From positions 2,370,001 to 2,402,000 of the forward strand of contig NZ_CP042905.2 of NCBI RefSeq assembly GCF_008000775.2: a DNA stretch of 32,000 bases. The letters are read 5' to 3'. Shown here piece after piece: positions 3,815 to 32,000 of this stretch (position 1 is its first letter; every line of letters begins with the position of its first letter). A program made the translations under genes and the position numbers. The stretch is from Promethearchaeum syntrophicum. Its GTDB lineage: Archaea > Asgardarchaeota > Lokiarchaeia > Sigyniarchaeales > Promethearchaeaceae. The notes beneath the pieces were generated by a model. The model did not search any database. It was not told the origin of the DNA and saw nothing but the letters and a program-made list of their open reading frames with translations.

Positions 3815-6043
3815 TTATGCAGGAATATTATATCCAAGATCAACAGTATAACTAGTTAATTTGGCATTTCGAGATACCATGCGTACTGCAATATAATAAG
3901 TTCCTGCAGTTGGGACATTAAACGAACAAGTTTCAGGATTTGTTCCAGCATTTCCTATTGCAACTGAGTCTGTATAATCAGCAGAATTGCATATATATAA
4001 ATCCAGATTATAATTATTGCTCCACGAAAGAATGGCATCAATCATACCAGGTTGTACATCAATAGCAAAATAGTCAACCTCAAATTTCAGAAGATCTCCT
4101 GTCAACGTTTCTTCAAAATAAACGACATCTCCAGAAACTTCATTATCTACAGTGATTGTTAGGCTATCTTCACCATAATTACCGGCTGCATCATATGCTC
4201 GTACAGTTATTACATGATCACCATTAGGTACAGATTTCGTATCCCAAGTCCATGCGTAAGGAGAAGAAGAATCGGTTGTCCAACTCCCCCCATCAATAGA
4301 GTATTGAGTATAACTCACCCCAATATTATCTGTTGCTGTGGCTTCAATAGAAATGAAATCACTAACAATTGCACCATTTATTGGAGACGTAATACTAACA
4401 ACTGGATCTACAGTATCTGATGGAGTACTTCCTTGTTCAATTGAGAAGGAATAATCAACTAATCCAACATCAGCACTGGAGATCATCAAAACATAACCGT
4501 TGTCAACAAATCCCGCTAAACCAAAGGGACTGGTTGTTGTTTCAGTGGCATCATCTAACGTCAATGTTTCTATTGCTGTATAAGTAGGAACATCGCTAAT
4601 GAGTTCAACAGCGATTAAAGTTACTAAGAAATCGGTTTCTGTGGTTCTTCTTCCACCGGCGGGTGCTCCATCATCTCCATTAAATGAAAACATTGGATCA
4701 TATTCTGATTGAATTTGATTGAATTTCACATAATCAGATCCATAGGACCCCAATTCATACACACCAGTAGGATCTCCTAAATAACTCGAAGTTTCACCGA
4801 AATCAGATCCATATACATCGGAAACAAATGCTTCGTTAATATCATAAATCCGAATTTTATCCGGTTCTAAATCATCGAGATTAAAAGTAGTATAATCATA
4901 TTTTCCCCCGCCAATTGTGTCTGTATGAATTAGATTTGCTATTCGCCAATCATGGTAAACATCATCAAAGGTTTCTGAATATCCAAAATATGTTAACGCT
5001 TGATTAATTCCGGTAATTCCAGGAACGCCATTTTGAACAAAATAACTCAAGAAAGCGGCTCCGCCATAATGATCGGAGAGATAAACAGCCCACATTAAAG
5101 CTGCTCCGTAATCTGCAAGAATATTAATTCCACCTTGATCTTCCCATACGGTTAATGAATTATCAGGAGTTGCAAGATACGCTTCAATATCACCCCAAGC
5201 TACCCCATATCCACAAAGAGGTTCTGCATACATAGAACACCCTTCATTCATAAAAGTATCATCATTAGAATTGTAATCGTCGTGGATTAAATGTTGATAT
5301 TCATGAGCAACTACTCCCTCGTAAAGATTGGGTCGTAGAGCAGTATCACCAATTCTATTTTCCCAATCCATGCAATCAATGGAAATAATATTGCGATCAA
5401 AAGCTTGTTCTAAGACTCCCCAATAAAAACCCACAATATAATAAGGATAGGTTTGGTCGTAGTAATTATCATCACGAATATTGGAAACAAGCATTACAGA
5501 ACGTCCAGTTTCTTCATAGTACGCATCTCCTTGTTGGGCTGAACTTCCATCATGGAAATCAGGTGTACCAAAGTAAGAAGTGTCGATGGGATATATATTA
5601 GTGTCAAATTCATCGATCATATAAGCAACTTGGTCATCAGTTATCACTGGCAAATCTCGATCATCTGGAAAGCTTAAATCGAGAGCTACCCAAATTTCAA
5701 TATTATTTCCAACACCTCGGAGTTCAAAGGGAACAGTAATTGTCCCTGTATTAGAATCATAGCTATACCAATCTACGATATCACCGTCTGCGTAATAGGT
5801 TAAAGGTTCAACAGCGGCAGAACTTGGCACTTCGGAAGAAGCTATAGTCCGATCAGGTGTTGAAACAGCAGGTAAATTTTCCATTGTTCGCGCTCGTATT
5901 TCTGGACCCATATCAATAGGTTCATATGCAGAATAGTCAAACTGTTTATTTTGATTTTTTTGCAATGCTACCCCGAATGTAAGGATACTTGAAAAAACTA
6001 TAACGAAAACTAATGAGAAAATTATAGATTTATTCTTTTTCAT
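3815..6043 (-). CDS. Secreted zinc metalloprotease (gluzincin-type HExxH...NEG; M30/M9-like) with Ig-like and pre-peptidase C-terminal (PPC)-like domains
   Basis: 742 aa with a signal-like N-terminus (MKKNKSIIFSLVFVIVFSSILTFGVALQ). VVAH247EYQH251 is followed 15 residues later by NE267G. The C-terminal part has PVVSITSPINGAIV...DHVITVRAYDAAGNYGEDSLTITV (Ig-like) and then DYFAIDVQPG...AGTYYIAVRMVS (PPC-like). The family number is uncertain. Confidence 0.85.
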   Translation of the reverse strand: MKKNKSIIFSLVFVIVFSSILTFGVALQKNQNKQFDYSAYEPIDMGPEIRARTMENLPAVSTPDRTIASSEVPSSAAVEPLTYYADGDIVDWYSYDSNTGTITVPFELRGVGNNIEIWVALDLSFPDDRDLPVITDDQVAYMIDEFDTNIYPIDTSYFGTPDFHDGSSAQQGDAYYEETGRSVMLVSNIRDDNYYDQTYPYYIVGFYWGVLEQAFDRNIISIDCMDWENRIGDTALRPNLYEGVVAHEYQHLIHDDYNSNDDTFMNEGCSMYAEPLCGYGVAWGDIEAYLATPDNSLTVWEDQGGINILADYGAALMWAVYLSDHYGGAAFLSYFVQNGVPGITGINQALTYFGYSETFDDVYHDWRIANLIHTDTIGGGKYDYTTFNLDDLEPDKIRIYDINEAFVSDVYGSDFGETSSYLGDPTGVYELGSYGSDYVKFNQIQSEYDPMFSFNGDDGAPAGGRRTTETDFLVTLIAVELISDVPTYTAIETLTLDDATETTTSPFGLAGFVDNGYVLMISSADVGLVDYSFSIEQGSTPSDTVDPVVSITSPINGAIVSDFISIEATATDNIGVSYTQYSIDGGSWTTDSSSPYAWTWDTKSVPNGDHVITVRAYDAAGNYGEDSLTITVDNEVSGDVVYFEETLTGDLLKFEVDYFAIDVQPGMIDAILSWSNNYNLDLYICNSADYTDSVAIGNAGTNPETCSFNVPTAGTYYIAVRMVSRNAKLTSYTVDLGYNIPA

Positions 6044-9880: not shown

Positions 9881-10558
9881 TTAACTACTTGTTACTATTG
9901 GAATTGCATCAAGTAGTAATTCTGCTTCTCCGTGGAGTTCTAACAATTCTTTACGATGTTTGGATTTTCGAATTACTTTCTTTAGCAACTTTACTGCATC
10001 AGTATATTCGAAATCACGAAAATCTTTTCTCGCTTGTAGAAATTCCTCTGTGAGTTTTTTAAAGGTGCGCATTTTTAACACATCGGCTGAGACCTTGGTT
10101 GTTTTTCCTTTATAACAGATTGTAACTATGTTATTTTTAATAATTGGAGGTATTACAGGAAATTGACTAACAATTAAGGAAATAAAATGCCTTTTATAAT
10201 CTCGTTTGATTTCTCCCGTATCTCCAATATCTTTTTCTTTTTTTATTTTTTTAATAATAAGATCAATTGTGGATGTCATTATAATTGATCCCAGTAAACT
10301 GACTATAATTGCTACAAAAACATTTGAAATTTGGGATGTAATCAATATTAAGATAATTGCTTCTACTACATAAATTCCTACTTTTAGTAAAACTTGTTTT
10401 TGGTTTACCTTTTTTTGTTTAGCAATAAATTCTTCCAAATTCTGAATTGCCTCGATATTTAATTCTTGAATTTGATCAAGACGTGCTTTTTCTTCTGGAC
10501 TTAATTCCACAAGTTCAAGATTTTCATCAATATCTTTTTTATTCCTATTTGAATTCAT
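9881..10558 (-). CDS. Hypothetical bitopic/2-TM protein with coiled-coil N-terminus and helical C-terminal domain; translationally coupled to the surface protein gene
   Basis: 225 aa. Its ATG overlaps the upstream TGA as ATGA (10555-10558), and a strong AAGGAGGA lies 7-8 nt upstream inside the preceding gene. It has two hydrophobic helices (residues about 60-105). Confidence 0.65.
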   Translation of the reverse strand: MNSNRNKKDIDENLELVELSPEEKARLDQIQELNIEAIQNLEEFIAKQKKVNQKQVLLKVGIYVVEAIILILITSQISNVFVAIIVSLLGSIIMTSTIDLIIKKIKKEKDIGDTGEIKRDYKRHFISLIVSQFPVIPPIIKNNIVTICYKGKTTKVSADVLKMRTFKKLTEEFLQARKDFRDFEYTDAVKLLKKVIRKSKHRKELLELHGEAELLLDAIPIVTSS

Positions 10559-13425
10559 TTTAAATCCTCCTTCTCCTTATTAATTTCCTCTATTGGGGAA
10601 ATAAATTCTTCTTTTGTAATTTTTGCTTCTTCAGATAAATTTTCAAATTCAGCTTTATGAGCTTCTTGAGATATTTCATCCAAAGTTGAAATACATTTGT
10701 TTGTATCCCCTGTCCGATATAAACTGAAGGATGTTAAATATCCTAATGATAAAGAATAAAAACTATTCAGTATGATTAGCTCTGCTTCATCTCTAAATTT
10801 CAAGTATTTATCTACAACATTTAAGAGCATATCTCTCAAATTCTTCGGGAGATAATTCCAGAGTTTATCTAAAATGGTAACAACCCTTTGCCAATTAATC
10901 TGAGTGGAAATTGGAACTGTTTCTTCTAAAGTTATTGGTTCTTCTGATTTCTGTAAATCTCCGTCAGCTTCTTTATTAACATCACCTTTTCTATCACTTT
11001 TAACATCTGATTTTGTTTTCTTACCCAGTTTATCTCGTGTTTCTTTTAAAAATTCGACAATTTTATCAGAAGGTATAAAATTACTAGCAACAGCTCCCAA
11101 GGCAGTTCCGATAAATCCGCCTAATACAATAATCGGTGTAAAGAAAGGATTTGGTTCTTCTTCAGGGGGAATTTGAACAGTAACACTGATAATATCTGAT
11201 GGTTCACTAGATCCTGATGCATTATTTGCAACGATTACAAAATAATACGTTCCATTACTGAGACCAGTAACATTATAATAAGTCGTTTCTACAGTGTCTA
11301 ATAGATTCATTCCCTCTACAGATGAAATTGGAGTATTTTTATTTGTCATTTTTCCACTGGATTGAGGATTAGTGGAAGAATAATAAATACTATAATTTAC
11401 GGCTCCCTCAACAGCGAACCAGCTTAAGAGAAAATTACCATCATCATCTGTGGCATTAATTGGATCAATGATCGGAGTTAGAGGAGTGAAATTTTGTGGT
11501 AAAATTCTAACCTCAGTCCAAACACAATTAGAAGCATTACTTTCTACTGAGTTATTATATGCAGTTACAACGTAAAAATAAGTCCCGTTTGATAAACCAG
11601 AAATGTTATAACTAAAGTTTGGAGCAGTATCAAAAATTGATAGACGATCGATATTTGTTATAAAAGTGGATGAACTGTAAATATTGTATCCCGTCGCATT
11701 TTCTATTGAATCCCAATTTAGAGTAATATTGCCATCAGAATCAGTACTCTCTAAAGCTTGTAAGACAGGTGTTTGTAAAATTAAAGATGGTGAAGGATTC
11801 AGAGCTTCATCATATATTTCTTGCCAATAATCAAAAGTTAATGGTAAATAATCAGAAGCATTCCCGAAACTACTGGTGCCATTGTAAATCCGATCATATG
11901 GTGTATCATATATGCCATTAGTTGCAATCGCTCCTGGATAGTAAACTGAATAATTATTCCAATAATTACCGTAATCAGTGAAATTCCAATTATTCAAGTC
12001 TTGATTTGCATCATATGATATGTTATATAGAAAATTGCCATAAATCGAATTGAGCTCAGAATTTGAAATGTAAAAATCATATCCATCTGTGTTATTTACA
12101 ATATTCCAAGTGAAGATATTATTGTCCGCTGAACTTAAGTAAAATGACGATTTCCAATCGTTAAGACCTCCACAATAATTTAATAAATTCAATGAGATAT
12201 TTGCATAATCACACCATTGCATGTCAAATCCTTGATCACAATACTCGATTATATTTTCATAAATATTTATTAGATCTGTAAACGAAACAGATATTCCTGA
12301 GCTTGAAGAATTTGTAATAGTGTTATTGAAAATGTTTGTATCAACTGCATATCTACATCTTATACCTACATTGTTTAAGATAATTTCATTTTCGAAAATT
12401 GAAAGGTTCAAACAATCATCATTAAAAATTCCTGAATTATCATTATCTATTACAATATTTTCTCTTATAATTGAATGATTCGAATTTTCCAGCGCTATTC
12501 CATCATCAAGGTTTTTTGATACGTTATTATTTTTTAAATCTAAGAAAACAGAATCTTTCATAAAAATTGCATGAGGAGCACCATCAAAATCATAAGAATA
12601 ACTTAAACCATTATTTGAGATGAAATTTGATTCAAATGAAGAATTTTCAATATTTTTTCCATAAATTCCACGCATCCAATTACTTGATAAGTTATTATCA
12701 AAAACTGTTATATAATTAGATTCACTAGCATATAATCCAGTTCCAGTACTCATTTCACTCATTGCTTTATTTTCAGTCATATTATTCCCAGTAAAAATTG
12801 AATTATTTACATTTTTTAACTCAATTCCCGAGAAGAAATTTGTTGAAAAATGGGAATTAGAAATGTTGATAAAATCTGAATTTGTTATGGAAATACCTGA
12901 TCCTTCTCCTGTTATCCATGATTCTTCCATTCGTCCATTATAAGAACAATTTGAATTTGAAATTATAATATTGGAGACATTTTCCATGAAAATACCGTCT
13001 AATTCTGAATGATGAAATGAACAATTATTAATTTTAAAATTTTCTACAGAAGAAAGATTTAAATTTGTTATATTATAGCCCATTCCCAAATCCGCTCCAA
13101 AAATTTCCGTATTATTAAGTATTGCGAATTTTGTTGTATTTTGAATTAAAAGTCCACATTCATTTAATGAAGCATTTATTGGATCATAATATAACACATA
13201 TGGATCGTTTAGTGTGCCTGATCCTCCTCCCATAGTAGCAGCCGCAGCAGCTAATTCAGAATTCCCTACAATTTGGTGAATTGCTGAGGATTTTGGAGAA
13301 GGTTCATTTTCAATATTTAAATCTTGAAAATTGTTAGAATTAATTGATGAGAAGAAAGTTAAAACTATAATAAGAATTCCTAAAACCAAGTACAGATTCC
13401 TATTTTGTATCTTAATTTTTTTCAT
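10555..13425 (-). CDS. Large surface protein: signal/anchor, right-handed parallel beta-helix region, two FN3-like domains, TM helix, about 170-aa cytoplasmic tail
   Basis: 956 aa. Residues about 85-470 are Asn/Ser/Ile-rich ~22-residue repeats (for example ISNSNCSYNG, ITNSDFINISNSHFSTN, IENSSFESNFISNN) typical of PbH1/NosD-like beta-helices. Residues 552-750 form two FN3-like repeats. The TM helix is at residues 761-783 (FFTPIIVLGGFIGTALGAVASNF). I count about 38 N-x-S/T sequons by hand. Confidence 0.85.
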   Translation of the reverse strand: MKKIKIQNRNLYLVLGILIIVLTFFSSINSNNFQDLNIENEPSPKSSAIHQIVGNSELAAAAATMGGGSGTLNDPYVLYYDPINASLNECGLLIQNTTKFAILNNTEIFGADLGMGYNITNLNLSSVENFKINNCSFHHSELDGIFMENVSNIIISNSNCSYNGRMEESWITGEGSGISITNSDFINISNSHFSTNFFSGIELKNVNNSIFTGNNMTENKAMSEMSTGTGLYASESNYITVFDNNLSSNWMRGIYGKNIENSSFESNFISNNGLSYSYDFDGAPHAIFMKDSVFLDLKNNNVSKNLDDGIALENSNHSIIRENIVIDNDNSGIFNDDCLNLSIFENEIILNNVGIRCRYAVDTNIFNNTITNSSSSGISVSFTDLINIYENIIEYCDQGFDMQWCDYANISLNLLNYCGGLNDWKSSFYLSSADNNIFTWNIVNNTDGYDFYISNSELNSIYGNFLYNISYDANQDLNNWNFTDYGNYWNNYSVYYPGAIATNGIYDTPYDRIYNGTSSFGNASDYLPLTFDYWQEIYDEALNPSPSLILQTPVLQALESTDSDGNITLNWDSIENATGYNIYSSSTFITNIDRLSIFDTAPNFSYNISGLSNGTYFYVVTAYNNSVESNASNCVWTEVRILPQNFTPLTPIIDPINATDDDGNFLLSWFAVEGAVNYSIYYSSTNPQSSGKMTNKNTPISSVEGMNLLDTVETTYYNVTGLSNGTYYFVIVANNASGSSEPSDIISVTVQIPPEEEPNPFFTPIIVLGGFIGTALGAVASNFIPSDKIVEFLKETRDKLGKKTKSDVKSDRKGDVNKEADGDLQKSEEPITLEETVPISTQINWQRVVTILDKLWNYLPKNLRDMLLNVVDKYLKFRDEAELIILNSFYSLSLGYLTSFSLYRTGDTNKCISTLDEISQEAHKAEFENLSEEAKITKEEFISPIEEINKEKEDLK
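11176..11772 (-). repeat. Tandem internal duplication encoding two FN3-like domains
   Basis: LESTDSDGNITLNWDSIENATGYNIYSS...YNISGLSNGTYFYVVTAYNNSVESNASN aligns with INATDDDGNFLLSWFAVEGAVNYSIYYS...YNVTGLSNGTYYFVIVANNASGSSEPSD (residues 552-640 and 648-750). Confidence 0.6.
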
Positions 13426-13485: not shown

Positions 13486-13495
13486 AAAAAAAAAA
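13486..13495 (-). terminator. Oligo-T (T10 on the minus strand) closing the GRE operon
   Basis: An A10 run on the plus strand lies 8 nt beyond the minus-strand stop at 13503-13505. Confidence 0.45.
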
Positions 13496-13502
13496 CAAGA
13501 TT

Positions 13503-14405
13503 TTAATGATTAAAATTAAGTACTTTGGGCCTGGTTTTCAAGGTGGGATAAATTATACCTGGCAGAGGAGGCATACTATTATATACCTCATCAATTTCGA
13601 TAATTCCACACTTTACATTTCCAAATTTCTGTGTTCCGATAAAAGTTCCTTGGACAACTAAATTTATTAATTCGATTTCATCGGCAATCACTGCAAAAGT
13701 TGACACGTGGGCTCCAATCTTCAATTTTTCTAAATCTTCTTTAAAATGTGAATAAGTAAAAATTAATTTGCTTCTATCTGGTGCTCTTAATTGAAAGCAT
13801 GGAATAATTATAGGGTATCCATCATCAGGATCAATAATGCTGATAAATTTAGGATTAAAAGGATTGTTATATAAATCATATCCAAGTCGATGAAGTTTAT
13901 CTTCAGAGTTTGAATCATTGGCTTTACGTTTGGCAAAAAGATCTAAAATTAAACCCTTTGCGATTGGTAAAATTTTAAGATCCATTACTGGAGTGACACT
14001 TTCAACAGAATTATAGTAAGCTTTCTCCACATTCATATAAGTATTATAACGTAACATTTGTCCTCTTGAAAAATATTCGCAATCTTCTCCTCCTGTCATT
14101 CGATGAGTATAGATCATTTTTGCTTGAAGAAATTTATAAGGCATAACAGCATTCATGTAAAATGCGCCTTGCTTTGGGTTTTGTAATACATTACGTTTAC
14201 TTGTTCCTTTTGTAAATTCTCCCCATACTACTTGGTCGGGTGTTTTCGCTCTATTAAAAGAAATCATTGTAATATGAGGCCACCCCCGAGGATCAATAGT
14301 AGCGAGTAATTTTAACCCCACTTCCATTTCTGACAGTTCTATTCCTTCTTTAGAGAATTTTGAATTCCACACTTTTGCTTTTTTACTCATTTTCATCTTT
14401 TCCAT
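13503..14405 (-). CDS. Tandem split-barrel (PNPOx/FMN-binding-like) protein, third gene of the GRE operon
   Basis: 300 aa. Two halves each carry the pattern I associate with pyridoxamine-5'-phosphate-oxidase-like barrels: LLATIDPRGWPHITMISFNRAKTPDQVVWGEFTKGTSKRNVLQNPKQGAFYM and FISIIDPDDGYPIIIPCFQLRAPDRSKLIFTYSHFKEDLEKLKIGAHVSTFAV. It lies 43 nt downstream of the activase. Confidence 0.65.
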   Translation of the reverse strand: MEKMKMSKKAKVWNSKFSKEGIELSEMEVGLKLLATIDPRGWPHITMISFNRAKTPDQVVWGEFTKGTSKRNVLQNPKQGAFYMNAVMPYKFLQAKMIYTHRMTGGEDCEYFSRGQMLRYNTYMNVEKAYYNSVESVTPVMDLKILPIAKGLILDLFAKRKANDSNSEDKLHRLGYDLYNNPFNPKFISIIDPDDGYPIIIPCFQLRAPDRSKLIFTYSHFKEDLEKLKIGAHVSTFAVIADEIELINLVVQGTFIGTQKFGNVKCGIIEIDEVYNSMPPLPGIIYPTLKTRPKVLNFNH

Positions 14406-14448
14406 ATTTATATTTTTTCCTCATATATTGAACATAAAAAAAAATCCT

Positions 14449-15417
14449 TTATTTTCGAGTTAGACCTGTCCAACTAACATTTTTTACACCAGTTGATTCG
14501 GCAATTTGGAGAAATATCTCCATTTCTTTGGAGGTAAATAATTCAAGATTCTCACAAGGGTAAGGTAGATCCATTCGATGATATTTATCCTTCGCTAAAT
14601 TATTAAATGCTAAGAGATCCCATCGGTCAATTTTGTTTTCCAATTTTTCAAAAATAAACCTTCCAATTTCATGAATATTCTCATTTGATGCAGTGAATTC
14701 AGGAATAATCGGTGTTCTTACCCACATTTTTTTATTTGTTCTTTCAATTTTATTCAAGATCCAAAGTGCATTTTCCAAAATAATTTCATTAGATTGTCCC
14801 GTAAATTCCTTATGTTTAGAAGGGTCCATCTCCTTAAGATCATACAAAATTAGATCAACATAAGGGATAATTTTTTCAAGATTTTTCTTTGAAACAAATC
14901 CACAAGTATCTAATGCGGTGTGAAATCCTTTTTCTTTACATTTTTGAAGAAATTTCGAAACAAATTCTGCTTGAAGGGCAGATTCTCCCCCAGAAACTGT
15001 AATTCCTCCGTCTTTTGAGTTTAAATAATATGCAGCATCCTTTTCTACAATTCTAAGTAAATCATCTAAAGAAATTTCTTTACCTAATTTTCTAAGAGCA
15101 GTAGTTGGACAATTTTCAACGCACAATCCACATTGTGAACATAATTGGCGATTAATACTTATCCCATCATCTTTCAATTGAATTGCGGTATCAGGGCATA
15201 TTTTAACACATGTTCCACATCCAATACACCGAATAGAAAACCATTGTATTGAAGGTTCTGGAAAAAAGGATTCTGGATTATGACACCAAGCACATTTCAA
15301 ATTGCATTTTTTAAAAAAAACTGTAGTACGTAAACCTGGGCCATCTTCAGTTGACATCCTTTGAATTTCAAAAATATTTCCAGAGATAGATTTTGCCATT
15401 TTTAGAATTCTCTCCAA
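14449..15417 (-). CDS. Glycyl-radical enzyme activating enzyme (radical SAM, with two extra ferredoxin-type clusters)
   Basis: It has C38NLKC42AWC45HNPE (CxxxCxxC), GPGLRTTVFF, and CIGCGTCVKICP plus CSQCGLCVENCP. It lies 25 nt after the GRE gene. The likelier start is the ATG at 15399 (MAKSISG..., GGAGA 11 nt upstream) rather than the TTG at 15417. Confidence 0.9.
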   Translation of the reverse strand: MERILKMAKSISGNIFEIQRMSTEDGPGLRTTVFFKKCNLKCAWCHNPESFFPEPSIQWFSIRCIGCGTCVKICPDTAIQLKDDGISINRQLCSQCGLCVENCPTTALRKLGKEISLDDLLRIVEKDAAYYLNSKDGGITVSGGESALQAEFVSKFLQKCKEKGFHTALDTCGFVSKKNLEKIIPYVDLILYDLKEMDPSKHKEFTGQSNEIILENALWILNKIERTNKKMWVRTPIIPEFTASNENIHEIGRFIFEKLENKIDRWDLLAFNNLAKDKYHRMDLPYPCENLELFTSKEMEIFLQIAESTGVKNVSWTGLTRK

Positions 15418-15442
15418 TCATTATCTATTAATAGTTTAATTT

Positions 15443-17959
15443 TTACATATTGTGCATTTCTCGTGCAATAATTTCATCTTGGAGTTCTTTTCCTATAGAT
15501 ACAAAATATGCATTATATCCCGTTATCCTAACCAATAGATTGTGGTATCCGTCGGGATTAACTTGAGCATCTTTAAGCATATTTGCATCTAATATGTTGA
15601 TTTGTAAAGCTGTGCCTCCGTTCTCTATATATCCCTTCAAATATGATTTAAATTTCTCTTTTAGTTCTGGATTACGTAGCAATGAAGGATTAAATGTCAA
15701 TGTATGGCTAGCGCCATTAGGTAAAAAGTTAATATAATCTCCATTTTCATCCTTACCTCCTAAAACGGTACCAACAGAATTCGTTACTGCAGTAGGTCCT
15801 TGAATATCTGCTCCGTTCGTTGGTGAAATCGCATTAGAAAGGAATTGTCCTCCTATTCTTCCATCTGGTGTTGCTGGTGTAAAACCTGCATCCTCTCCAG
15901 CCCAGTAATTCCATGATAACATTCCTGGTCTATAGGTAAAATCTGTAGGTGTTTTATATTTGAAGCATTCTTGAGACCATATTTCCATTACTTTTTGTGC
16001 AAGTTCATCTGCTTCATCATTATCATTTCCATATTTCGGAGCTCGATTTTTTATGAGTGAATGCATAATTTTCCATTCTTTTTTACCCTTGAAATCATTT
16101 TCCATAGCTTCTTTTAATTCAGCAATTGTGAATTTTTTCTCGTCATATACAAACTTCTTTATTGCGAGTAACGAATCGACTAGAGTCGCGAAACCAACCC
16201 CTTCAATCGTGATAAATCGAATTTCAGGACCCCCATTTCTGACATCCAAGCCTGAGTTGATACATCCCTTTACCATTGAGGATAAATATGGTGTTGGTAA
16301 CCATCTGGCACGGAATTCTTCAGAAATATTATACGTATCAACAGTATACTTAATTTGATATCTTATCTGCCTAACCCAAGCATTCCAAAATTCTTCCCAA
16401 GTTTTAAAATCTTCTGCTAATCCCGTTTTAAGACCCATAAGTATAGGTTTTTTCTCTTTTGGATGGAGCATTATTACATTTTGATTTTGATTTGCGCTTT
16501 TACCATTATTCAATGTCAACAATATACTCTTAACCAAGTTAGGATTGCAATTTACCGTTCCGCTGCGATCATTTCCTTGCATTGTATTTTCCAAACATCC
16601 AACACATGCATAATCCCAAGCTTTTTCTTTTGGAATTCCTTGCCTCATCATTCCCGCTATAGATCTCTCATCAAAATTTAGAATAAAAGGAGCACCTTGA
16701 GATTTCGTTATCATATTTACTATAATGTCTAGTAATTTATCTGGAGAATTTCTGTGTAAGCGAACATTTGGTTTAGGTTCAAGAATTGGACTCCATTCAT
16801 CAATTACCTCAAGAATGGTGTAAGTTAAATCGTTTGTAAGATCTTCTCCATTAGAACCACATCCAGATAAGGTCATAAGTTGTCCAAAACCTGCTGTGAT
16901 TCCTTGGTTTCCAATGCGCATTTGAGCATCATAGGCAGTATTACAGTGAAACCAAAAGGATCCAAGAATTTCTTTAGCAAAATTTTTAGTAATGTTCTTT
17001 TCATCGATTACATCTTTTTTATATAGATCCCATAAATGTTGATCAGTTCTTCCAAATGATAGCCCTGGTCCTGGATAACTTTCTTCTGCCATTACAAGCA
17101 TATGGATTAACCAAAGAGATTGAACACCTTGCCAAAATGTTTGAGCTGGCTCCCAAGGTACAATTTCAAGGTTATTTGCCATTTGCTCAAGTTCAAGTTT
17201 TCTAGTGTCGTCATTCACCTCAGCTGCCAACCTTCTACATTCTTCGGCATATTTTTGGGCTAATTTTCGTGGAATTTCTGAAGCTTGAATAATAGCTCTT
17301 ATTTCGTTGCCTATTGGGCTTTTTTTTTCTTTCAAACTAAGTTGATTATATCTTTCTTTAGCATCATTAAAAACCGATTTAAAACCATTATTAATTATAA
17401 AATCGTAATCCGGAATGATATGTCCAGCAGTTGCACCTACATTCCCGAAACCATGATTATGATATTTAAAAGTACTATGTCTGACGTTTAAATTTAGTTT
17501 ATCAAATATTTTTTGCTCTTTTTCATTTAAACATTTACTTAGTTGTGTATTGAATCGCCCCCCCGCTAAGAGTTCAGGTCCAATTATCTCTTGAGGAATT
17601 TTATTTAACATGACTTTTTCCAAAAATATTATTCGTCTCTCTGGGAGTGATTTAGACCAGAAATCTTTAGGCAATTCCACTTCTTCAGCCATTAATGCTA
17701 AAGAAGAACCGAAAATACCACGTGTTTTATTTCCAAGATAAAAATAAATTTCAGGAACAATATAATAATCAGTTTCTGCAAAGGGTCTATCATCTAAGAG
17801 TCCGGTTGTAAAAGGCATATATTCATTATTCCATTCACGCTTCACTCCTAAAAAGTAATAGTCTCTTAGCCATTTATTACGTGGAGATAAATCATGTGGT
17901 TCAGCAATTCGATATTTTTGCTGTTCACCTAACGAATCCTCTTTTTCTGTAGTTACCAT
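15443..17959 (-). CDS. Glycyl-radical enzyme, PFL2/dehydratase-lyase type (substrate unknown)
   Basis: 838 aa. The C-terminal fingerprint is LLVRITG814YNAYF. The single-Cys loop is ACVGC455LE457. It also has GHIIPDYDFIINNGF, SFGRTDQHLWDLY, and FTPATPDGRIGGQFLSNAISPTNGADIQGPTAVTNSV. The SD-like GAGG lies 5 nt before the ATG. Confidence 0.9.
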   Translation of the reverse strand: MVTTEKEDSLGEQQKYRIAEPHDLSPRNKWLRDYYFLGVKREWNNEYMPFTTGLLDDRPFAETDYYIVPEIYFYLGNKTRGIFGSSLALMAEEVELPKDFWSKSLPERRIIFLEKVMLNKIPQEIIGPELLAGGRFNTQLSKCLNEKEQKIFDKLNLNVRHSTFKYHNHGFGNVGATAGHIIPDYDFIINNGFKSVFNDAKERYNQLSLKEKKSPIGNEIRAIIQASEIPRKLAQKYAEECRRLAAEVNDDTRKLELEQMANNLEIVPWEPAQTFWQGVQSLWLIHMLVMAEESYPGPGLSFGRTDQHLWDLYKKDVIDEKNITKNFAKEILGSFWFHCNTAYDAQMRIGNQGITAGFGQLMTLSGCGSNGEDLTNDLTYTILEVIDEWSPILEPKPNVRLHRNSPDKLLDIIVNMITKSQGAPFILNFDERSIAGMMRQGIPKEKAWDYACVGCLENTMQGNDRSGTVNCNPNLVKSILLTLNNGKSANQNQNVIMLHPKEKKPILMGLKTGLAEDFKTWEEFWNAWVRQIRYQIKYTVDTYNISEEFRARWLPTPYLSSMVKGCINSGLDVRNGGPEIRFITIEGVGFATLVDSLLAIKKFVYDEKKFTIAELKEAMENDFKGKKEWKIMHSLIKNRAPKYGNDNDEADELAQKVMEIWSQECFKYKTPTDFTYRPGMLSWNYWAGEDAGFTPATPDGRIGGQFLSNAISPTNGADIQGPTAVTNSVGTVLGGKDENGDYINFLPNGASHTLTFNPSLLRNPELKEKFKSYLKGYIENGGTALQINILDANMLKDAQVNPDGYHNLLVRITGYNAYFVSIGKELQDEIIAREMHNM

Positions 17960-18034
17960 TTTTCCTCATTTATGCTATTTTTTATAAATTGATTAATATA
18001 TTTCGCTTAACAATATATATGTTTGCTAATATTG

Positions 18035-18054
18035 ATGGAAACCATGGTTTCCAT
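18035..18054. promoter_or_regulatory. Perfect 20-bp palindrome ATGGAAACCATGGTTTCCAT; candidate operator between the GRE operon and the TetR gene
   Basis: I checked the reverse complement by hand and it equals the sequence itself. It sits about 15 bp from a minus-strand ATATATAT box (18013-18020) upstream of the GRE gene. Confidence 0.5.
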
Positions 18055-18096
18055 TATAATTTTTAATCAAATATTTCCAATTTTATATAAATGAAG

Positions 18097-18128: not shown

Positions 18129-18755
18129 TTGAATAAATTTTCAATATTTTTTATTAATTCTTTGGACAATATTATATTAATAATGGATGTATCCGACCAA
18201 AATTTTGAAAAAAAACAAGAAATCGCTAATAAATTTATGGAATTTTTCTTAAAGCATGGGATGGTTAAAACTATTGTTAACGATGTTTCTAAAGAACTCC
18301 ATATGAGTAAAAAAACTATTTATAAGTATTTTAAAGGGGGAAAACAAGATTGCCTATATTTTATTTTTTCAAACATTGGTCACCAAGCCCGTATGATTAT
18401 TGAAAAAGATATAATGAATTTAAGCTCATCTTGGGAAAAAATCGAATATTTAATTCGCCAAATATATGAAGTTTCAGTTCCCTATGTCTTAGGTAATGCA
18501 GCTGAGAATGATGAAGACTATGTTGTTGAAAATCGAATAGTGGGAAATGCTTTTAAAGATGTTTTTCAAGATCTTTTTATTAAAAATATAAATCAAGGAA
18601 TTAATAAAAAGGAATTTTCAACCAGTAATGCAAACCAAACATTTAATTTTATCTATGGGGTAATTCTAGAGAGTATGATTATGATACATGATGATCCTGC
18701 TATAAATATTTTAGATCAAGTTATTAAAACAGTTAGAAAAATCCTTAAGAAATAA
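18129..18755 (+). CDS. TetR/AcrR-family transcriptional regulator, divergent from the GRE operon
   Basis: The N-terminal HTH is KKQEIANKFMEFFLKHGMVKTIVNDVSKELHMSKKTIYKYFKGGKQD, followed by a helical ligand domain. The start is ambiguous: TTG at 18129 (AGGA about 7 nt upstream), or ATG at 18183 (MDVSDQN...), which gives the usual short N-terminus. Confidence 0.85.
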   Translation: MNKFSIFFINSLDNIILIMDVSDQNFEKKQEIANKFMEFFLKHGMVKTIVNDVSKELHMSKKTIYKYFKGGKQDCLYFIFSNIGHQARMIIEKDIMNLSSSWEKIEYLIRQIYEVSVPYVLGNAAENDEDYVVENRIVGNAFKDVFQDLFIKNINQGINKKEFSTSNANQTFNFIYGVILESMIMIHDDPAINILDQVIKTVRKILKK

Positions 18756-18945: not shown

Positions 18946-20253
18946 TTATTTCTTTTTCTTTGTTAATCCAAATAAAAGACCACCTAGAATTAATCCCACC
19001 AATGCGCTACCCCCCATAAGAATGTAATGGGAGAGATCCAAATTTTTTACTAAATCTGATAAATTGCTCAGAACTGTACCAGGGACCACATCGATTTTAT
19101 ATACAATGAACATTCCATCATTAGTTAAGATCGATACTACGGTTCCATCATCAGAAATTTGCACTAAAGATATTTCTGAACTATATGTATTATGATTCAT
19201 AATTGAACGGCCTACTTCTGCATCAATTATCATCACCATTCCATCATATATCCCAGCGACTGCAATTTTTCCATCAAGAGAAATTTTTGTAGCTCTAACT
19301 TGCGAGGTAGTAGCTATTTCCCAAGTAAGGTCTTTTGCATTACGGGCATAACATCTCACCCTTTTATCCGAAGCGTCCGCAGTATAGGAACCAATAATAA
19401 TCTTATCACCTGATTCTGTCATCGAGAAACCTTTATAAGCAGCTTCAATAATCGAATTCCATAAAATATTTCCGCTCAAAGTATCCCAAACTGTTACATT
19501 ATCTCCAAATGGGCCTACATCTAAACCACTTGTAACCATTGTCGATCCGTCATCACTTATTTCAAGGGTTGCCACAGATGAAGATAATCCTTGTTTTTTC
19601 CATAATTGATCTCCAGTATAGCCATCTAAACACAATACTGTTCCATTTGCAAACCCCAAACCCAATGTGGATCCATTTCTATTGAAATTAGCTATATTTG
19701 GATAATCGAATATTGATTTTCGCCACATCTCATTTCCATTGGTCCCATTTATACCAATTAAATTATATGCTAATTCACTACTGACATATATTGCGAGAAA
19801 AAAAACTCCTCCATCTGCGCACATTAATGCTTTATTGACACTATTTATTCCATAATCAAAAGCCCACAAATCATCAGTCCCTGTTTTGCCATAGCAATAA
19901 TATTTATTTACATCCGCATCAACAAATGAGATTTTTGAACCATCCTCATTGATATCTACATAGTATGACAAAACATGAGATGTCAAATTCCAAATGATTT
20001 CAGATTCGCCATCAAAACTTTCAGGAACAGAATAAAGAATAACATTATCTACAGTATCTGCCACAACATATTTTCCATCTTTCGACATTTTCATATTATT
20101 TCCAAAAGTGTTATCACTAAAATCTGTCATCATAACAATCGACACTTCAGGCGGTACATAATCTTCTGTTTCAGCATTTGCTGAAGCAATATATGAGGAA
20201 ACCATTAACATTGTTAAGAGAATCCCCATCATCATTAAGTTTACTTTTTTCAT
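18946..20253 (-). CDS. Secreted, C-terminally membrane-anchored beta-propeller protein (PQQ/WD40-like repeats)
   Basis: 435 aa with a signal-like N-terminus (KVNLMMMGILLTMLMVSSYIASANA). Recurring blades contain DGS/DGK...(V/I)xxG and G(D/N)xxW motifs (GNEMWRK, GDQLWKK, GNILWNS). The C-terminus ends with YILMGGSALVGLILGGLLFGLTKKKK. Confidence 0.75.
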   Translation of the reverse strand: MKKVNLMMMGILLTMLMVSSYIASANAETEDYVPPEVSIVMMTDFSDNTFGNNMKMSKDGKYVVADTVDNVILYSVPESFDGESEIIWNLTSHVLSYYVDINEDGSKISFVDADVNKYYCYGKTGTDDLWAFDYGINSVNKALMCADGGVFFLAIYVSSELAYNLIGINGTNGNEMWRKSIFDYPNIANFNRNGSTLGLGFANGTVLCLDGYTGDQLWKKQGLSSSVATLEISDDGSTMVTSGLDVGPFGDNVTVWDTLSGNILWNSIIEAAYKGFSMTESGDKIIIGSYTADASDKRVRCYARNAKDLTWEIATTSQVRATKISLDGKIAVAGIYDGMVMIIDAEVGRSIMNHNTYSSEISLVQISDDGTVVSILTNDGMFIVYKIDVVPGTVLSNLSDLVKNLDLSHYILMGGSALVGLILGGLLFGLTKKKK

Positions 20254-20367: not shown

Positions 20368-20616
20368 ATGGAAAATCTATTTCATAGAATGAAATTAAAT
20401 GTGATAAATTTATCAAAAATAGCCAATAGCTTTGAAACTCAAGTATCTGTAAAAGTTTACGCAAATAAATTTCCAATCACTGTATCGGGAATTAAAGGAA
20501 GAAGAAATTTCATCTATGGAATATTATTAGAAAGTATAATTATGTTACATGATAATCCTGGTGTTAATATTAAAGATCAAGTTATTTTAACATTGAAAAA
20601 AATCGTTAAAAAATAA
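20368..20616 (+). pseudogene. Truncated relic of a second TetR-family gene (C-terminal part only)
   Basis: The last 108 nt (20509-20616) align without gaps to the last 108 nt of the intact TetR gene (18648-18755), with 86/108 identical by my hand count. FIYGILLESIIMLHDNPGVNIKDQVILTLKKIVKK* aligns with FIYGVILESMIMIHDDPAINILDQVIKTVRKILKK*. No HTH-encoding part is present upstream. Confidence 0.6.
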
Positions 20617-20677: not shown

Positions 20678-22342
20678 ATGAGACCGAACCAATATCAAAA
20701 ACAACCTAATTTTAAGAAAATTGTAAATTCAAATGATCCATCCCAAAACAAAAATATAAAAAATCAAATTCGTGACCTCCAACCGGGAGATTACTATAAA
20801 GGAACGGTCAAAATTCTACGAAAGGTTAAACCTGGGCCTCTAATTTTATCTGTTTTTGATGGATCAGGAAAAATTGACGCCATTGCTCGAGATAGTTTAT
20901 TCAATGAGATGAAAAGAAATACTACTGGTATTACAACTTATGATTTTGGTAATATTAAAATAAAAGATAATCGAAAAAAGAAAAAAACATCCCAATCTTC
21001 TAATAACTTAAAATCAATTACCGAAGATGATATTCACGTTGATGATGTCTTTGAAATTCAGGGAAAAATTGGCGTTCATAGAGATAAATTGGAAATTGAG
21101 TTAGATTCTTTGAAAGAAGCGACTATGGATTTTAATGCGCTGATAAATAACCAATCGGAACCGTTAAGAAATACTTTTAGCATCAAATCCGAACGATATG
21201 AAGCCATGAAACCTGTTTTCCTACGCATTGCTCAACGAATACGACATGCAATCATTGATGATCAACCCATAGTAATTCGCCATCATAATGATGCTGATGG
21301 TATATGTGCAGGTTTAGCTGTCGAACAAGCTGTTTTGAATGTTATGGAACGCCGAGAACTTCCATCGAAGAATCGAATTTATCGGAGTCCGAATATTACT
21401 CCATTTTTTGATCAAATTGATCTTTTTCGAGATATAAGCAAATTTACAAGATATTCTAAACAATTTGGTGATAAATCCCCTCTACTTTTATTATTGGATA
21501 CTGGATCAACACCCGAAAATCATTTTGCATTACAAGTATTACAATCTTTCAAGTTTGAATGTATAATAGTTGATCATCATAATCCAGGAACTATTAAGAA
21601 TGGAAAAAGTGTGGTTTGTGATTTGATCGAATTCCATCTCAACCCATATCTATTTGGATATGATAGTCAAACATGTGGTGGGATGCTTTGTTACGAACTT
21701 TCTCGATTTATTGATGAAGAATACGATCAGCCAATATATCCCGCCGTTGCTGCCCTTGGTGATAGGTGTGATATTCCTGAGGTGGATTTGCTGATTGCCC
21801 AATCCCAAAAGAACAGAGAAGAATTATTTCAAATGGCTATCGTCTTAGATTATTTGGCTTTCCAATATAAATTTGATCCAGGCGAAGGCGTATATGAGAA
21901 AGTTTTCACCAACTCAGATATTTTAAATATCATTGGAACCAAAGTAAAATCTTTATTTGCAACCAAATTGGAGAGTATGTTGCCCCACATCAAAAGTGAA
22001 GATATAAATGGTATATGTTTTACTATCATTGAATTAGAAAAATTCACACAGCGTGGAAAATATCCGACCTCTGGAAAAGTGCTAGGAATAGTCCATGATT
22101 ACATCTTATCTCAGAATGATGCTCAACCAGTTTTCACCGTTGGGTATTTTGAAGATGGTATCATTATTCGTGCTTCTCAACCAATTCTTCCTGTTCCTAT
22201 ATTATTAGAGAAAATGGAGCGAAAACTTCCAAATGCAAATGTTGAGGGTGGAGGGCATGAACAAGCGGGATCCATCAAATTTATATCTGTTTTTGGAGAA
22301 GATGTGTTAAATTTTATCAAAACTCAATTACAGAAAATTTAA
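20678..22342 (+). CDS. RecJ-like DHH/DHHA1 nuclease with N-terminal OB-fold (archaeal RecJ/HAN/GAN-type)
   Basis: 554 aa with an OB-like N-terminus (GDYYKGTVKILRKVKPGPLILSVFDGSGKIDAIA...FEIQGKIGVHRDKLEIEL). DHH motifs are IVIRHHNDADGICAG, LLLLLDTGS, IIVDHHNP and ALGDRCDIP. The DHHA1 motif is GGGHEQAGS. Confidence 0.85.
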   Translation: MRPNQYQKQPNFKKIVNSNDPSQNKNIKNQIRDLQPGDYYKGTVKILRKVKPGPLILSVFDGSGKIDAIARDSLFNEMKRNTTGITTYDFGNIKIKDNRKKKKTSQSSNNLKSITEDDIHVDDVFEIQGKIGVHRDKLEIELDSLKEATMDFNALINNQSEPLRNTFSIKSERYEAMKPVFLRIAQRIRHAIIDDQPIVIRHHNDADGICAGLAVEQAVLNVMERRELPSKNRIYRSPNITPFFDQIDLFRDISKFTRYSKQFGDKSPLLLLLDTGSTPENHFALQVLQSFKFECIIVDHHNPGTIKNGKSVVCDLIEFHLNPYLFGYDSQTCGGMLCYELSRFIDEEYDQPIYPAVAALGDRCDIPEVDLLIAQSQKNREELFQMAIVLDYLAFQYKFDPGEGVYEKVFTNSDILNIIGTKVKSLFATKLESMLPHIKSEDINGICFTIIELEKFTQRGKYPTSGKVLGIVHDYILSQNDAQPVFTVGYFEDGIIIRASQPILPVPILLEKMERKLPNANVEGGGHEQAGSIKFISVFGEDVLNFIKTQLQKI

Positions 22343-30249: not shown

Positions 30250-32000
30250 TTAAGAAGATTGATCTCTTTTTCTTCTTTGCGAAACATAAAAGCGCGCTGC
30301 TTTATTTATATCATCATCATTTAAGCTTTTCTTGTTTAATCTGATTCTTAGTTGCTCAACAAATTTTCGACATAAAGTAATCGAAAGAGATTCGCCTAAA
30401 TTCCTGATTTCTTCCCCGAGTTTTTCCGCTTCAATTGAAATTGGAGTAATTTCCACTTTAGGTTGCAAAATGAAATCTCCTAACGGATTTTTCTCCACTT
30501 TACTTGAAACTGGCTTAATTTTTCTGATTTCCGCTTTGGTTTGAGCGCGTACACCTTTACTAATTAAGGGAGACCGTTCTAGCGTAAGTTTTTTCTCTCT
30601 TGTTTGACCAGATTTGTAATTTGATAAAGAACTTTCTAAAAATTTCTCTTTCATTTCAATCCGAGAAGAATCAGAGGTTCCATTCAATCTATCTATGTTA
30701 ATTGGTGCGATTTTATGTGTTTTTATTTCAAAATCTTTAATTGGCGCCCCAGGAGGCATTTCTTTAATTGAATTATCTTTCTTGGTTATCAAATCACTAA
30801 AAAATGGATTTTTTTGATCCAATTTAGAAAATGTGGGGTCATTTTTTCTTTTAATCGAATCAAGGTTAGAAACGGGCAATTTTTTAATCTTTGGGACCCC
30901 AATTTTATCTCCAGGTAATTGATTTACCCCTCTAAAATCTTTAAATTGGACTTTTTCAGGAGCTTTAAACATATCCTTTTCCAATTTTTTCTTATCTAAT
31001 TGTAATTGCAATTTTTCTTCTAATTCTTTAATTTTATTTTGAAATACTTCTAAATATGCAAATTCTTGATAAATTTCACAAATTCCTATCAATTCTCTTA
31101 GAAGTTCTATCCCTTCTGTATATTTTTCTTCTGCTACAAAATTATTCGCTTCTATAAGTTTTTTTCTAAATTCTTGGGGAAGGGATTCCTTTAAACCAAG
31201 TATTTTGGTAAAAATCATTGATAAATTTCCTAAAACATTTTGATCAATAAGATTTATATCAAAAATTTCTACATCCTTTAAATAAACATGCCTTTCCTTT
31301 AAAGCAGAAGAAGATACGAAATTTTGATTATCAGCATGGGTTAGTATAATCGCCCAATTACTATATTTTCCTTCTCTTCGCTTTAAATTGATGAAAAATT
31401 TGATTTTTTCATCATTAAAATTTGAACCATCAATAATAAAAAATATTACATCAGATCCTCTCGTAAAATTATTCCAAAGAGGGGAAAAATCATCTCTTGC
31501 TATGAAATCCCAGAGATCAAAGAAAATATTGCCCATCTTAATCTTGTAATAAAAAGCAAAATCCATAATTTTATGACCATGAGATTTATCTTCTTGATTC
31601 AATATATTTACAATCGTAGATTTACCAGATCCTACTGGTCCAATCATGGTTATTTTAGGATGTAGGTAATAATGAGTTTCTTTTATGAAAATCGTGAATT
31701 CCTCTTTTTCTGGGGAAATTTCTTTAATTTTCTTTGGGTCTGGGAAATTTTTAAGAAATAATTTTGAAGCTCTCTCCACTTCTTTGGCAATTAATTTAGG
31801 TCTATCAGCCATATCTGTTACAAATAAAAAGAAAACGCCATTAGCGTAAACGAAATGCGTTTGGAAATCAAGTAAAGATTTGTTAAGAATTTTTCCTTCA
31901 ACTGGATTCGTAATATAGGATAGAAGTCTCTTTTTTAGTACTATTTCCAAAGCTTCCTTATCAAAAGCTTTAGCGAAGAAATATTGGAATACAATTTCAT
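30250..32000 (-). CDS. Multidomain longin-like + Arf-like small GTPase protein with coiled-coil/TPR-like and basic C-terminal regions; N-terminus lies beyond the window
   Basis: The ORF-track start (TTG at 31950) is probably not the true start. The frame stays open to base 32000 (...EIVFQYFFAKAFDKEALEIVLKK...). The P-loop is GPVGSGKST (nt 31618-31641). The interswitch/switch II block FDLWDFIARDDFSPLWNNFTRGSDVIFFIIDGSN aligns to Arf. The G4-position motif is LTHAD. Confidence 0.8.
   Translation of the reverse strand, partial: EIVFQYFFAKAFDKEALEIVLKKRLLSYITNPVEGKILNKSLLDFQTHFVYANGVFFLFVTDMADRPKLIAKEVERASKLFLKNFPDPKKIKEISPEKEEFTIFIKETHYYLHPKITMIGPVGSGKSTIVNILNQEDKSHGHKIMDFAFYYKIKMGNIFFDLWDFIARDDFSPLWNNFTRGSDVIFFIIDGSNFNDEKIKFFINLKRREGKYSNWAIILTHADNQNFVSSSALKERHVYLKDVEIFDINLIDQNVLGNLSMIFTKILGLKESLPQEFRKKLIEANNFVAEEKYTEGIELLRELIGICEIYQEFAYLEVFQNKIKELEEKLQLQLDKKKLEKDMFKAPEKVQFKDFRGVNQLPGDKIGVPKIKKLPVSNLDSIKRKNDPTFSKLDQKNPFFSDLITKKDNSIKEMPPGAPIKDFEIKTHKIAPINIDRLNGTSDSSRIEMKEKFLESSLSNYKSGQTREKKLTLERSPLISKGVRAQTKAEIRKIKPVSSKVEKNPLGDFILQPKVEITPISIEAEKLGEEIRNLGESLSITLCRKFVEQLRIRLNKKSLNDDDINKAARFYVSQRRKRDQSS

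Follow-up and report, generated by a model that had tools for sequence, protein, structure and literature searches.

A glycyl-radical enzyme of an uncharacterised Cys-x-Glu subfamily and its conserved tandem split-barrel partner in Promethearchaeum syntrophicum

We describe a three-gene operon of the Asgard archaeon Promethearchaeum syntrophicum, located in a stretch of 32,000 nucleotides (contig NZ_CP042905.2 of assembly GCF_008000775.2, positions 2,370,001 to 2,402,000) which is referred to here as the window and in whose numbering all coordinates are given. The operon encodes a glycyl-radical enzyme (GRE), the radical S-adenosylmethionine (radical-SAM) enzyme predicted to activate it, and a 300-residue protein, here called X300, which is predicted to consist of two PNPOx-like split barrels in tandem. 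By its sequence the GRE is a member of an uncharacterised Cys-x-Glu subfamily and belongs to no characterised family, and the published annotation of the gene as a pyruvate formate-lyase (PFL) is unsupported on the same grounds. X300 and this GRE subfamily are found together almost without exception, whichever of the two serves as the starting point, and the module is a widespread uncharacterised family rather than the oddity of one genome. Our reading of its function, held tentatively, is that of an autonomous and probably substrate-inducible catabolic module in which an eliminase- or isomerase-type GRE works with its activase and with X300 as a redox partner.

Results

Structure of the operon

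An earlier note on this DNA, made from its letters alone, had described three open reading frames (ORFs), and all three were recovered on the minus strand: the GRE gene (15443-17959; 838 residues), the activase gene (14449-15399; 316 residues as deposited, QEE16873.1) and the gene of X300 (13503-14405). The GRE is deposited as 'pyruvate formate lyase family protein' (QEE16874.1) and corresponds by gene order to DSAG12_02704, while X300 matches DSAG12_02702 of Ca. Prometheoarchaeum syntrophicum MK-D1 with 100% identity. Because the deposited activase begins at ATG 15399 and not at TTG 15417, to which its ORF reaches, the gap between the GRE and activase genes is 43 nt and not 25 nt as had been claimed; the intergenic gaps in the operon are about 43 nt each, and there are no further ORFs inside it. 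Eight nucleotides past the TAA stop of X300 the minus strand carries a run of ten T residues (13486-13495), located where the note had seen it, which is probably an archaeal oligo-T terminator.

The motifs reported earlier were likewise found by script. In the GRE the glycyl-radical motif RITGYNAYF starts at residue 811 (15503-15529, minus strand) and places the radical glycine at G814, and the Cys loop VGCLE starts at residue 453 (16589-16603, minus strand), with a single cysteine, C455, followed at position +2 by E457, and not a Cys-Cys pair. The blocks GRTDQ, LENTMQGNDRSG and ATPDGR start at residues 303, 456 and 696, respectively. The activase carries the radical-SAM motif CX3CX2C as CNLKCAWC from residue 38, and two ferredoxin-type cluster motifs of the form CxxCxxCxxxCP at residues 64 and 93.

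The glycyl-radical enzyme belongs to no characterised family

Two published readings bear on this enzyme. In Supplementary Table 4 of Imachi et al. (2020; PMC7015854) DSAG12_02704 is listed as 'Pyruvate--formate lyase', with 251 reads per kilobase per million mapped reads (RPKM), and in the main text of that work 2-oxoacid-formate lyases supply formate to the partner organisms. Zhang et al. (2021; PMC8163825), on the other hand, took Asgard GREs of the Hermodarchaeota and Loki lineages to be alkyl- or benzyl-succinate synthases in view of 29-33% identity, the presence of only one cysteine and an activase rich in Fe-S clusters.

The GRE of the window matches the Pfam PFL-like domain PF02901 (414 bits) and the Gly_radical domain (68.4 bits against a cut-off of 22.2), but it misses the cut-off of all NCBIfam models for characterised GREs. 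This applies to the PFL models TIGR01255 (93.8 against 994.2 bits) and NF007437 (305.3 against 1109), the HypD equivalog NF043068 (379.6 against 1100), the HpsG/HpfG-type models NF048009 and NF048011, which stand for the C-S lyases and DHPS dehydratase (IslA, IseG, HpsG, HpfG; about 357 against 1000), the CutC equivalog TIGR04394 (343.6 against 1050), and the models for indoleacetate decarboxylase (281 against 1100) and HPAD (190 against 1150). The PFL2-3 subfamily model TIGR01774 is also missed (420.5 against 678.2 bits), and its match begins only at residue 176. Among sequences of solved structures glycerol dehydratase (GDH) is the best match at 331 bits, with CutC, HypD and propanediol dehydratase (PD) also among the best; weaker matches are the Archaeoglobus fulgidus protein 2f3o (252 bits), IslA (250), MASS (200) and BSS (165), and the E. 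coli PFL structures come last at 58 bits. Reference sequences for Clostridium butyricum GDH, Cetobacterium HypD, Klebsiella CutC, and E. coli YbiW and PflD, taken from plasmid records and aligned with members of the subfamily, are 26-30% identical to the window GRE globally and up to 33% locally, and plasmid-borne pflB genes are 22-24% identical. The suspicion of the earlier note, that the enzyme is not nested in a characterised clade, is thus borne out.

The same picture emerges from an AlphaFold2 (AF2) model of the GRE, which has a mean predicted local distance difference test (pLDDT) score of 74 and a predicted template modelling (pTM) score of 0.80. The model aligns over its full length with all solved GREs (TM-score about 0.70, 20-26% identity), and in the structural ranking dehydratases come first, with GDH as the top Foldseek match, and the X-succinate synthases are among the last. 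The scaffold is modelled well; pLDDT falls below 50 at residues 177-179, 297-299, 356-359, 451-468, 682-734 and 809-838, probably because the alignment was shallow (27 sequences) and not for a biological reason. The N-terminal 175 residues are highly conserved within the subfamily and found no sequence match to any solved GRE in the search of the PDB. The idea that they form a novel domain was dropped, as the model aligns to known GREs over its full length; judging from the model, they are most likely the usual N-terminal helical region in a much diverged form.

On these data the enzyme is extremely unlikely to serve MK-D1 as its formate-lyase for pyruvate or other 2-oxoacids. The label stands in the table of Imachi et al. 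(2020; PMC7015854) and recurs among its orthologues, which are called 'pyruvate formate lyase family protein' or 'formate C-acetyltransferase' at NCBI and JGI, and a PFL-like Pfam domain is indeed present. However, the Cys loop reads G454-C455 and not Cys-Cys, whereas two essential cysteines occur only in PFL and TdcE (PMC13450708), and the PFL models, structures and pflB genes are all distant in the comparisons above.

Membership of the hydrocarbon-activating alkyl- or benzyl-succinate synthases, as proposed by Zhang et al. (2021) for Asgard GREs, is scarcely more than nominal as a prospect. The single catalytic cysteine and the two extra cluster motifs of the activase would fit the arguments of these authors (PMC8163825), and the subfamily does include a Hermodarchaeota orthologue (P0497, 67% identity; also locus L044); the sequences of Zhang et al. 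may belong to it as well. Against this, a single cysteine and activases with additional clusters are common to nearly all non-PFL GREs (PMC13450708). BSS and MASS are the most distant of the PFL2-type structures, with 20-21% identity, and the activase, which scores 316.7 bits on TIGR02494 (cut-off 174.35), misses the BssD activase model TIGR04003 (194.8 against 496.45 bits). Furthermore, the alpha-beta-gamma architecture is conserved in the known members, and no genes for beta or gamma small subunits are found in the operon, whose gaps, at about 43 nt, are too short to hold any.

The active site keeps the catalytic residues but not the known substrate contacts

In the alignment with the reference enzymes C455 corresponds to C433 of GDH, E457 to E435 and G814 to G763, and the C455-L-E457 triplet is invariant throughout the subfamily. 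A Cys-x-Glu pair has been described for all GRE 1,2-eliminases and isomerases, where the glutamate forms a hydrogen bond with the substrate hydroxyl, and His164 of GDH has been proposed to protonate the hydroxyl as it leaves (PMC13450708). Its counterpart in the window GRE is His180 (17420-17422, minus strand), which is conserved across the subfamily. Seven pocket residues of GDH, which we take to be its substrate contacts and whose presence in the C. butyricum sequence was confirmed by alignment, were compared in addition to C433 and E435, and only H164 is kept; N156, H281, S282, Y339, D447 and Y640 are replaced by G172, P298, G299, G359, V469 and L681. The aspartate with which HypD binds the substrate amine (in PWDAF) is likewise replaced, by P298, and CutC has an aspartate at the position of His180. 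In the C-S lyases and DHPS dehydratase the sulfonate is anchored by an Arg/Gln/Arg triad, and Gln193 of IslA would lie opposite His180, an estimate from extrapolated match coordinates. As far as a sequence alignment can tell, the pocket is thus not conserved with GDH, HypD or CutC, and His180 is the only one of their substrate contacts that is shared.

These replacements bear on the possibility that the enzyme is simply a divergent orthologue of GDH or PD, of HypD and its relatives, of CutC, of the C-S lyases or of YbiW/PflD. Its best matches are GDH, CutC, HypD and PD, it keeps Cys-x-Glu and His180, and one JGI record names an orthologue 'trans-4-hydroxy-L-proline dehydratase'; nonetheless we regard such orthology as very unlikely, given that all equivalog cut-offs are missed roughly threefold, that six GDH pocket residues and the aspartates of HypD and CutC are all changed, and that the subfamily has invariant motifs of its own. 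The latter are ESYPGPG, with a two-residue insertion, NQGIT, CLENTxQGNDRSGTV, LSWNYW and the TGYN Gly loop. Bacterial and archaeal members are 46-72% identical and have all signature motifs in common. As the motifs remain unchanged between Asgard archaea and bacteria of 60% GC, the subfamily would seem to have a conserved substrate of its own. The glycine and proline residues at G172, P298, G299 and G359, which take the place of mostly bulkier ones in GDH, HypD and CutC, together with the polar and aromatic residues of the subfamily motifs, suggest a substrate that is larger and polar, perhaps carbohydrate-like, and none of the known GRE substrates.

X300 is predicted to be a duplicated split barrel

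X300 is strongly conserved in an alignment of 26 sequences, and its AF2 model (pLDDT 84, pTM 0.82) shows two beta-rich halves followed by a conserved tail, residues 279-300, which is left disordered. Foldseek matched the model with a probability of 1.0 to PNPOx-like, FMN-binding, F420 reductase and HupZ barrels, 2htd included, with target TM-scores of up to 0.76; full-length matches to two-barrel proteins were only loose. The N-terminal barrel spans approximately residues 14-140 (13986-14366, minus strand) and the C-terminal barrel approximately residues 165-285 (13551-13913, minus strand). The two halves are homologous in a profile-profile comparison (hhalign probability 97.7%, E = 1.8e-12), which indicates an internal duplication, and the tandem split barrel proposed in the earlier note therefore holds by fold prediction, half-against-half comparison and profile matches alike.

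Profile searches led to the same clan at lower significance. With the family profile the N-terminal half matches HupZ and COG3576-type proteins weakly (E = 0.003), and the C-terminal half matches GS26-type PNPOx entries, also weakly. The window copy scores 17.2 bits on Pfam PNPOx_N, below the cut-off of 28.1, which is exceeded by its relatives P0133 (32.3), P0378 (33.8), P0027 (29.0) and P0056 (29.1). The N-terminal half contains an ATxDxxGxPH strand and keeps an [ST]-K...N-P motif (G-T-S69-K70...N76-P), which presumably resembles the cofactor-phosphate site of the family, and X300 has no Cys motifs. Taken together, sequence and model suggest that X300 is a pseudo-dimeric split barrel of the flavin type, which would bind a flavin.

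The three genes are linked across archaea and bacteria

Conservation of the module was analysed in a set of 80 species-level genome loci retrieved via X300, all of which are metagenome-assembled genomes (MAGs) of Asgard archaea, and which together with the window make up 81 Asgard loci. The earlier note had regarded GREs as uncommon in such an archaeal setting; this does not hold, as tblastn detected the GRE in 61 of the 80 retrieved loci and the activase in 75, and GREs are common in Asgard archaea. X300 adjoins the GRE, the activase or both in 74 of the 81 loci. The order GRE, activase, X300 is found in 42 of them, another 23 have the activase and X300 together with the GRE farther away or off the contig, and in nine X300 follows directly after the GRE.

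The association extends well beyond the Asgard archaea. X300 forms thousands of protein clusters, and an exhaustive search with its profile returned 335 clusters at 50% identity. Seven distant homologues were looked up, and in all six with an informative context the gene lies directly after a GRE or activase gene; the GREs concerned are of the same subfamily, with 46-54% identity and all of its motifs. In the opposite direction, a search anchored on the GRE, with peptide patterns specific to the subfamily, gave no fewer than 563 metagenome loci. Among the best 80 of these, 59 have at least 2.3 kb of downstream sequence, and X300 is present in 54; the remaining five are of the Asgard type in which kilobases separate the GRE from the activase and X300. 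Of the best 80 loci, about 55 look bacterial (GC 41-63%), and the named bacterial members are MAGs of Spirochaetota and Deltaproteobacteria. Over 93 loci the pairwise identities of the GRE and X300 are correlated with r = 0.96, X300 being the faster-evolving of the two. The co-occurrence that the note could only propose is therefore seen both ways and in both domains. No fusion of X300 with the GRE or the activase was found among 270 listed homologues.

In the bacterial loci 120 flanking genes matched 170 Pfam families, none of which occurs in more than six genes, and the search for pathway partners in bacterial neighbourhoods was given up for this reason. Genes for glycerol kinase and for an alpha/beta-hydrolase recur only in a few bacterial loci, which otherwise share neighbours and may be related. 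As no other neighbour is conserved in bacteria, the trio appears to be autonomous. The description of the operon as an orphan needs to be amended in that the operon is one of a large family, and in that some Asgard loci do place a sulfatase and a flavoenzyme close to it.

Regulator, operator and genomic context

Upstream of the GRE and divergent from it lies a gene for a TetR-family regulator (18129-18755, plus strand; 26 bits on TetR_N, cut-off 24), the true start of which, judging from a comparison of orthologues, is likely ATG 18183 rather than the TTG of the longest ORF. Between the two genes is a perfect 20-bp palindrome, ATGGAAACCATGGTTTCCAT (18033-18056). A divergent TetR-like gene is found beside the GRE in MK-D1 and four relatives, and the palindrome core GGAAAC-N4-GTTTCC is kept in all five of these loci, even where the regulators are only 43-49% identical; from this conservation the palindrome is a probable operator. 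In one bacterial locus a GntR/FadR-type gene is present upstream of the GRE. Regulators of the TetR or GntR type suggest catabolism, and from the TetR-like gene, the palindrome and the GntR/FadR-type gene the module is probably inducible. An 82-residue ORF (20368-20616, plus strand), on the far side of a gene for a 435-residue beta-propeller protein, matches the C-terminus of the TetR-like protein with 54% identity over its last 50 residues and is apparently what is left of a duplicated regulator.

Two genes recur near the module in Asgard archaea. The first encodes a cytoplasmic Cys-type sulfatase of about 510 residues, which is found no more than two genes upstream or downstream of the module in 35 of the 81 loci. 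The CxPxR motif is present in all 31 full-length copies, and the solved proteins nearest to it are arylsulfatases, choline sulfatase and phosphonate monoester hydrolases. The second, an NMO/FabK-like FMN enzyme, often accompanies the sulfatase and is found near the module in 23 of the 81 loci. Neither gene occurs within the window. The sulfatase linkage survives rearrangement and as such provides a lead towards a sulfated precursor. The sulfatase and a weak BetI-like match had also raised the idea of a route from choline-O-sulfate via choline to trimethylamine, which was rejected because the CutC model is missed and the enzyme has a His in place of the CutC Asp.

A different function is suggested by about 40 Asgard genomes, in which the module lies between genes of tetrahydromethanopterin (H4MPT)-type biosynthesis, with a DHPS-like gene (with DUF4346) and a DUF1464 gene upstream, and DUF447, MptD-type aldolase and beta-RFAP synthase genes downstream. 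We nevertheless consider it most unlikely that the module serves H4MPT biosynthesis, for example its aromatic arm, and the functional link was rejected. The flanking genes are absent from MK-D1 and from a second large Asgard context, the module is also carried by bacterial-type contigs and by the Spirochaetota and Deltaproteobacteria MAGs with unrelated neighbours, and the TetR- or GntR-type regulators speak for catabolism; the arrangement suggests that the module was inserted into an inherited cluster, and it is read as inherited synteny. In 41 loci the next gene after X300 on the same strand is that of DUF447, which is itself a family of the FMN-barrel type. In 20 Asgard loci a rubrerythrin gene with a rubredoxin-like domain lies immediately 5' of the GRE on the same strand, and its product may protect the oxygen-sensitive GRE from oxidative stress.

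Directly downstream of the operon the window encodes a 956-residue protein (10555-13425, minus strand) that combines right-handed, NosD-like beta-helix repeats with an fn3 domain and a membrane segment at the C-terminus, and beta-helix proteins akin to it recur near the module in nine loci. A GC-rich stretch at 4001-6000 (0.37-0.385, against 0.27-0.31 elsewhere) coincides with a 742-residue protein with Big_7 and PPC domains (3815-6043, minus strand). Typical Asgard features of the window are the beta-propeller protein mentioned above, which has a membrane anchor (18946-20253, minus strand), a 554-residue protein of the DHH family (RecJ/Cdc45-like; 20678-22342, plus strand) and a 566-residue protein with an Arf/Roc small-GTPase domain (30250-31950, minus strand).

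Discussion

The reading of the operon put forward at the outset can be spelled out as a reaction sequence, the steps of which we infer from conserved residues and by analogy with characterised enzymes. The activase, using S-adenosylmethionine, would place the radical on G814 of the GRE, from where a thiyl radical at C455 would abstract a hydrogen from a hydroxyl-bearing carbon of the substrate. E457 would deprotonate the hydroxyl on the attacked carbon and His180 would assist the loss of an oxygen leaving group from the adjacent carbon, so that a carbonyl compound is produced. X300 would then carry out a redox step on this product, probably as a reductase, and the module would represent a self-contained electron sink for a syntrophic fermenter.

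Two characterised systems come closest to such a module. The B12-independent GDH operon of C. butyricum (dhaB1, dhaB2, dhaT) contains the best match to the window GRE in both sequence and structure, with Cys, Glu and His164 kept, and its order of GRE, activase and third gene follows the same logic as the window operon; however, identity is only 30-33%, six of the seven pocket residues differ, and the third gene encodes an iron alcohol dehydrogenase in place of a tandem split-barrel protein. HypD, which is also a Cys-x-Glu eliminase with a histidine at the same position and gives the second-best NCBIfam score for the window GRE, is encoded in Cetobacterium in a module of the order activase, hypD, proC that likewise ends in a product reductase, although this is an NAD(P)H-dependent Rossmann enzyme and not a flavin-type barrel. 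It is because the third gene of these two closest operons encodes an enzyme acting on the product that a product-processing role is favoured for X300. For the proposed sugar-like substrate there is a precedent in the isomerases YbiW and PflD, which open the ring of anhydro-sugar phosphates and share Cys-x-Glu and the histidine (PMC13450708); they are 26-27% identical to the window GRE, lack an X300-type partner and have phosphotransferase system (PTS) and sugar-phosphatase genes as neighbours.

Several observations weigh against this reading of the module. HPAD, a decarboxylase, also has a Cys-x-Glu pair (PMC13450708), so that the chemistry cannot be read from this motif by itself. The confidence of the GRE model is lowest exactly at the most conserved active-site loops. 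As to flavin binding, the window copy of X300 stays below the PNPOx_N cut-off. Use of NAD(P)H is rare among PNPOx-like barrels, and X300 has no evident electron donor. Finally, operons that have been rearranged keep X300 either with the activase or with the GRE, which fits a physical partner just as well as a pathway enzyme.

This last point leads to the possibility, nearly as likely as product processing, that X300 is a physical accessory: either a flavin protein that donates electrons to the [4Fe-4S] cluster of the activase, in the role of a flavodoxin, or a non-catalytic subunit or regulator of the GRE, in a role similar to that of the small subunits in BSS, HPAD and MASS. Such an accessory function would explain the strict one-to-one pairing with a single GRE subfamily and the tight correlation of their identities, as well as the 23 Asgard loci in which X300 stays beside the activase when the GRE is not adjacent or is off the contig. 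In several bacterial loci the ORFs called for the activase and X300 overlap or abut, their start sites being approximate, and the conserved C-terminal tail of X300, disordered in the model, could be a docking peptide. The N-terminal 175 residues of the GRE, conserved in the subfamily and without a match among solved GREs, would also suit an interaction of this kind, and the PFL activase of E. coli does use flavodoxin (PMC13450708). On the other side, other GRE cassettes have spread without a dedicated reductant, the known accessory subunits of GREs are Fe-S or rubredoxin-like proteins and not flavin barrels (PMC13450708), and none of the 270 listed homologues is a fusion with the GRE or the activase. 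A further variant, which we think improbable but better than the family assignments rejected above, is that X300 takes part in the radical reaction itself and delivers electrons to the GRE for a net reductive transformation, such as a reductive dehydroxylation of a sugar or polyol resembling that of ribonucleotide reductase. If this were true, the reductive reaction of GRE and X300 would be of a class not known among PFL-like GREs, and the enzyme would be the first functionally defined archaeal GRE.

Whichever role X300 plays, a flavin-type barrel, as predicted here, is a kind of partner absent from the current GRE literature, although GREs and activases are themselves well known. Among the papers covered by a full-text search none joins 'glycyl radical' with 'split barrel'. 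The only dedicated extra proteins described for GREs are HPAD gamma, BSS beta/gamma and MASS beta/gamma/delta (PMC13450708), which are small HiPIP-like Fe-S or rubredoxin-like subunits, whereas X300 is a duplicated PNPOx-like barrel of 300 residues. The fold of each X300 half is that of HupZ, LDB0262/COG3576 (2htd), the Desulfovibrio FMN-binding protein and the F420 reductase MSMEG_3380; small PNPOx-like barrels of this kind are single-domain homodimers of 120-150 residues, and X300 would be a fused pseudo-dimer. To our knowledge none of these barrel types has been linked to GREs. The one structurally studied archaeal GRE, PflD of A. fulgidus (2f3o), is a PFL2-type enzyme of debated function (PMC13450708), and its 252 bits and 23% identity to the window GRE place it in another subfamily. 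According to a 2026 review no archaeal PFL-like GRE has a defined function, and whole clades are unassigned (PMC13450708).

The consequences reach beyond a single gene. MK-D1 is the first cultured Asgard archaeon, and its metabolic table carries DSAG12_02704 as a pyruvate formate-lyase; if the enzyme is not a formate-lyase, the formate hand-off branch of the MK-D1 model needs another basis, and so do the extrapolations from it to Asgard ancestors and to scenarios of eukaryogenesis. The claim of hydrocarbon-degrading Asgard archaea, which rests on similar GREs, is also weakened. The subfamily is large and is present in a culturable organism, and its candidate ligand-sensing regulator and operator could be used for finding the substrate. 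If our reading of X300 is true, its conserved barrel of the flavin type would add a new class to the accessory proteins of GREs.

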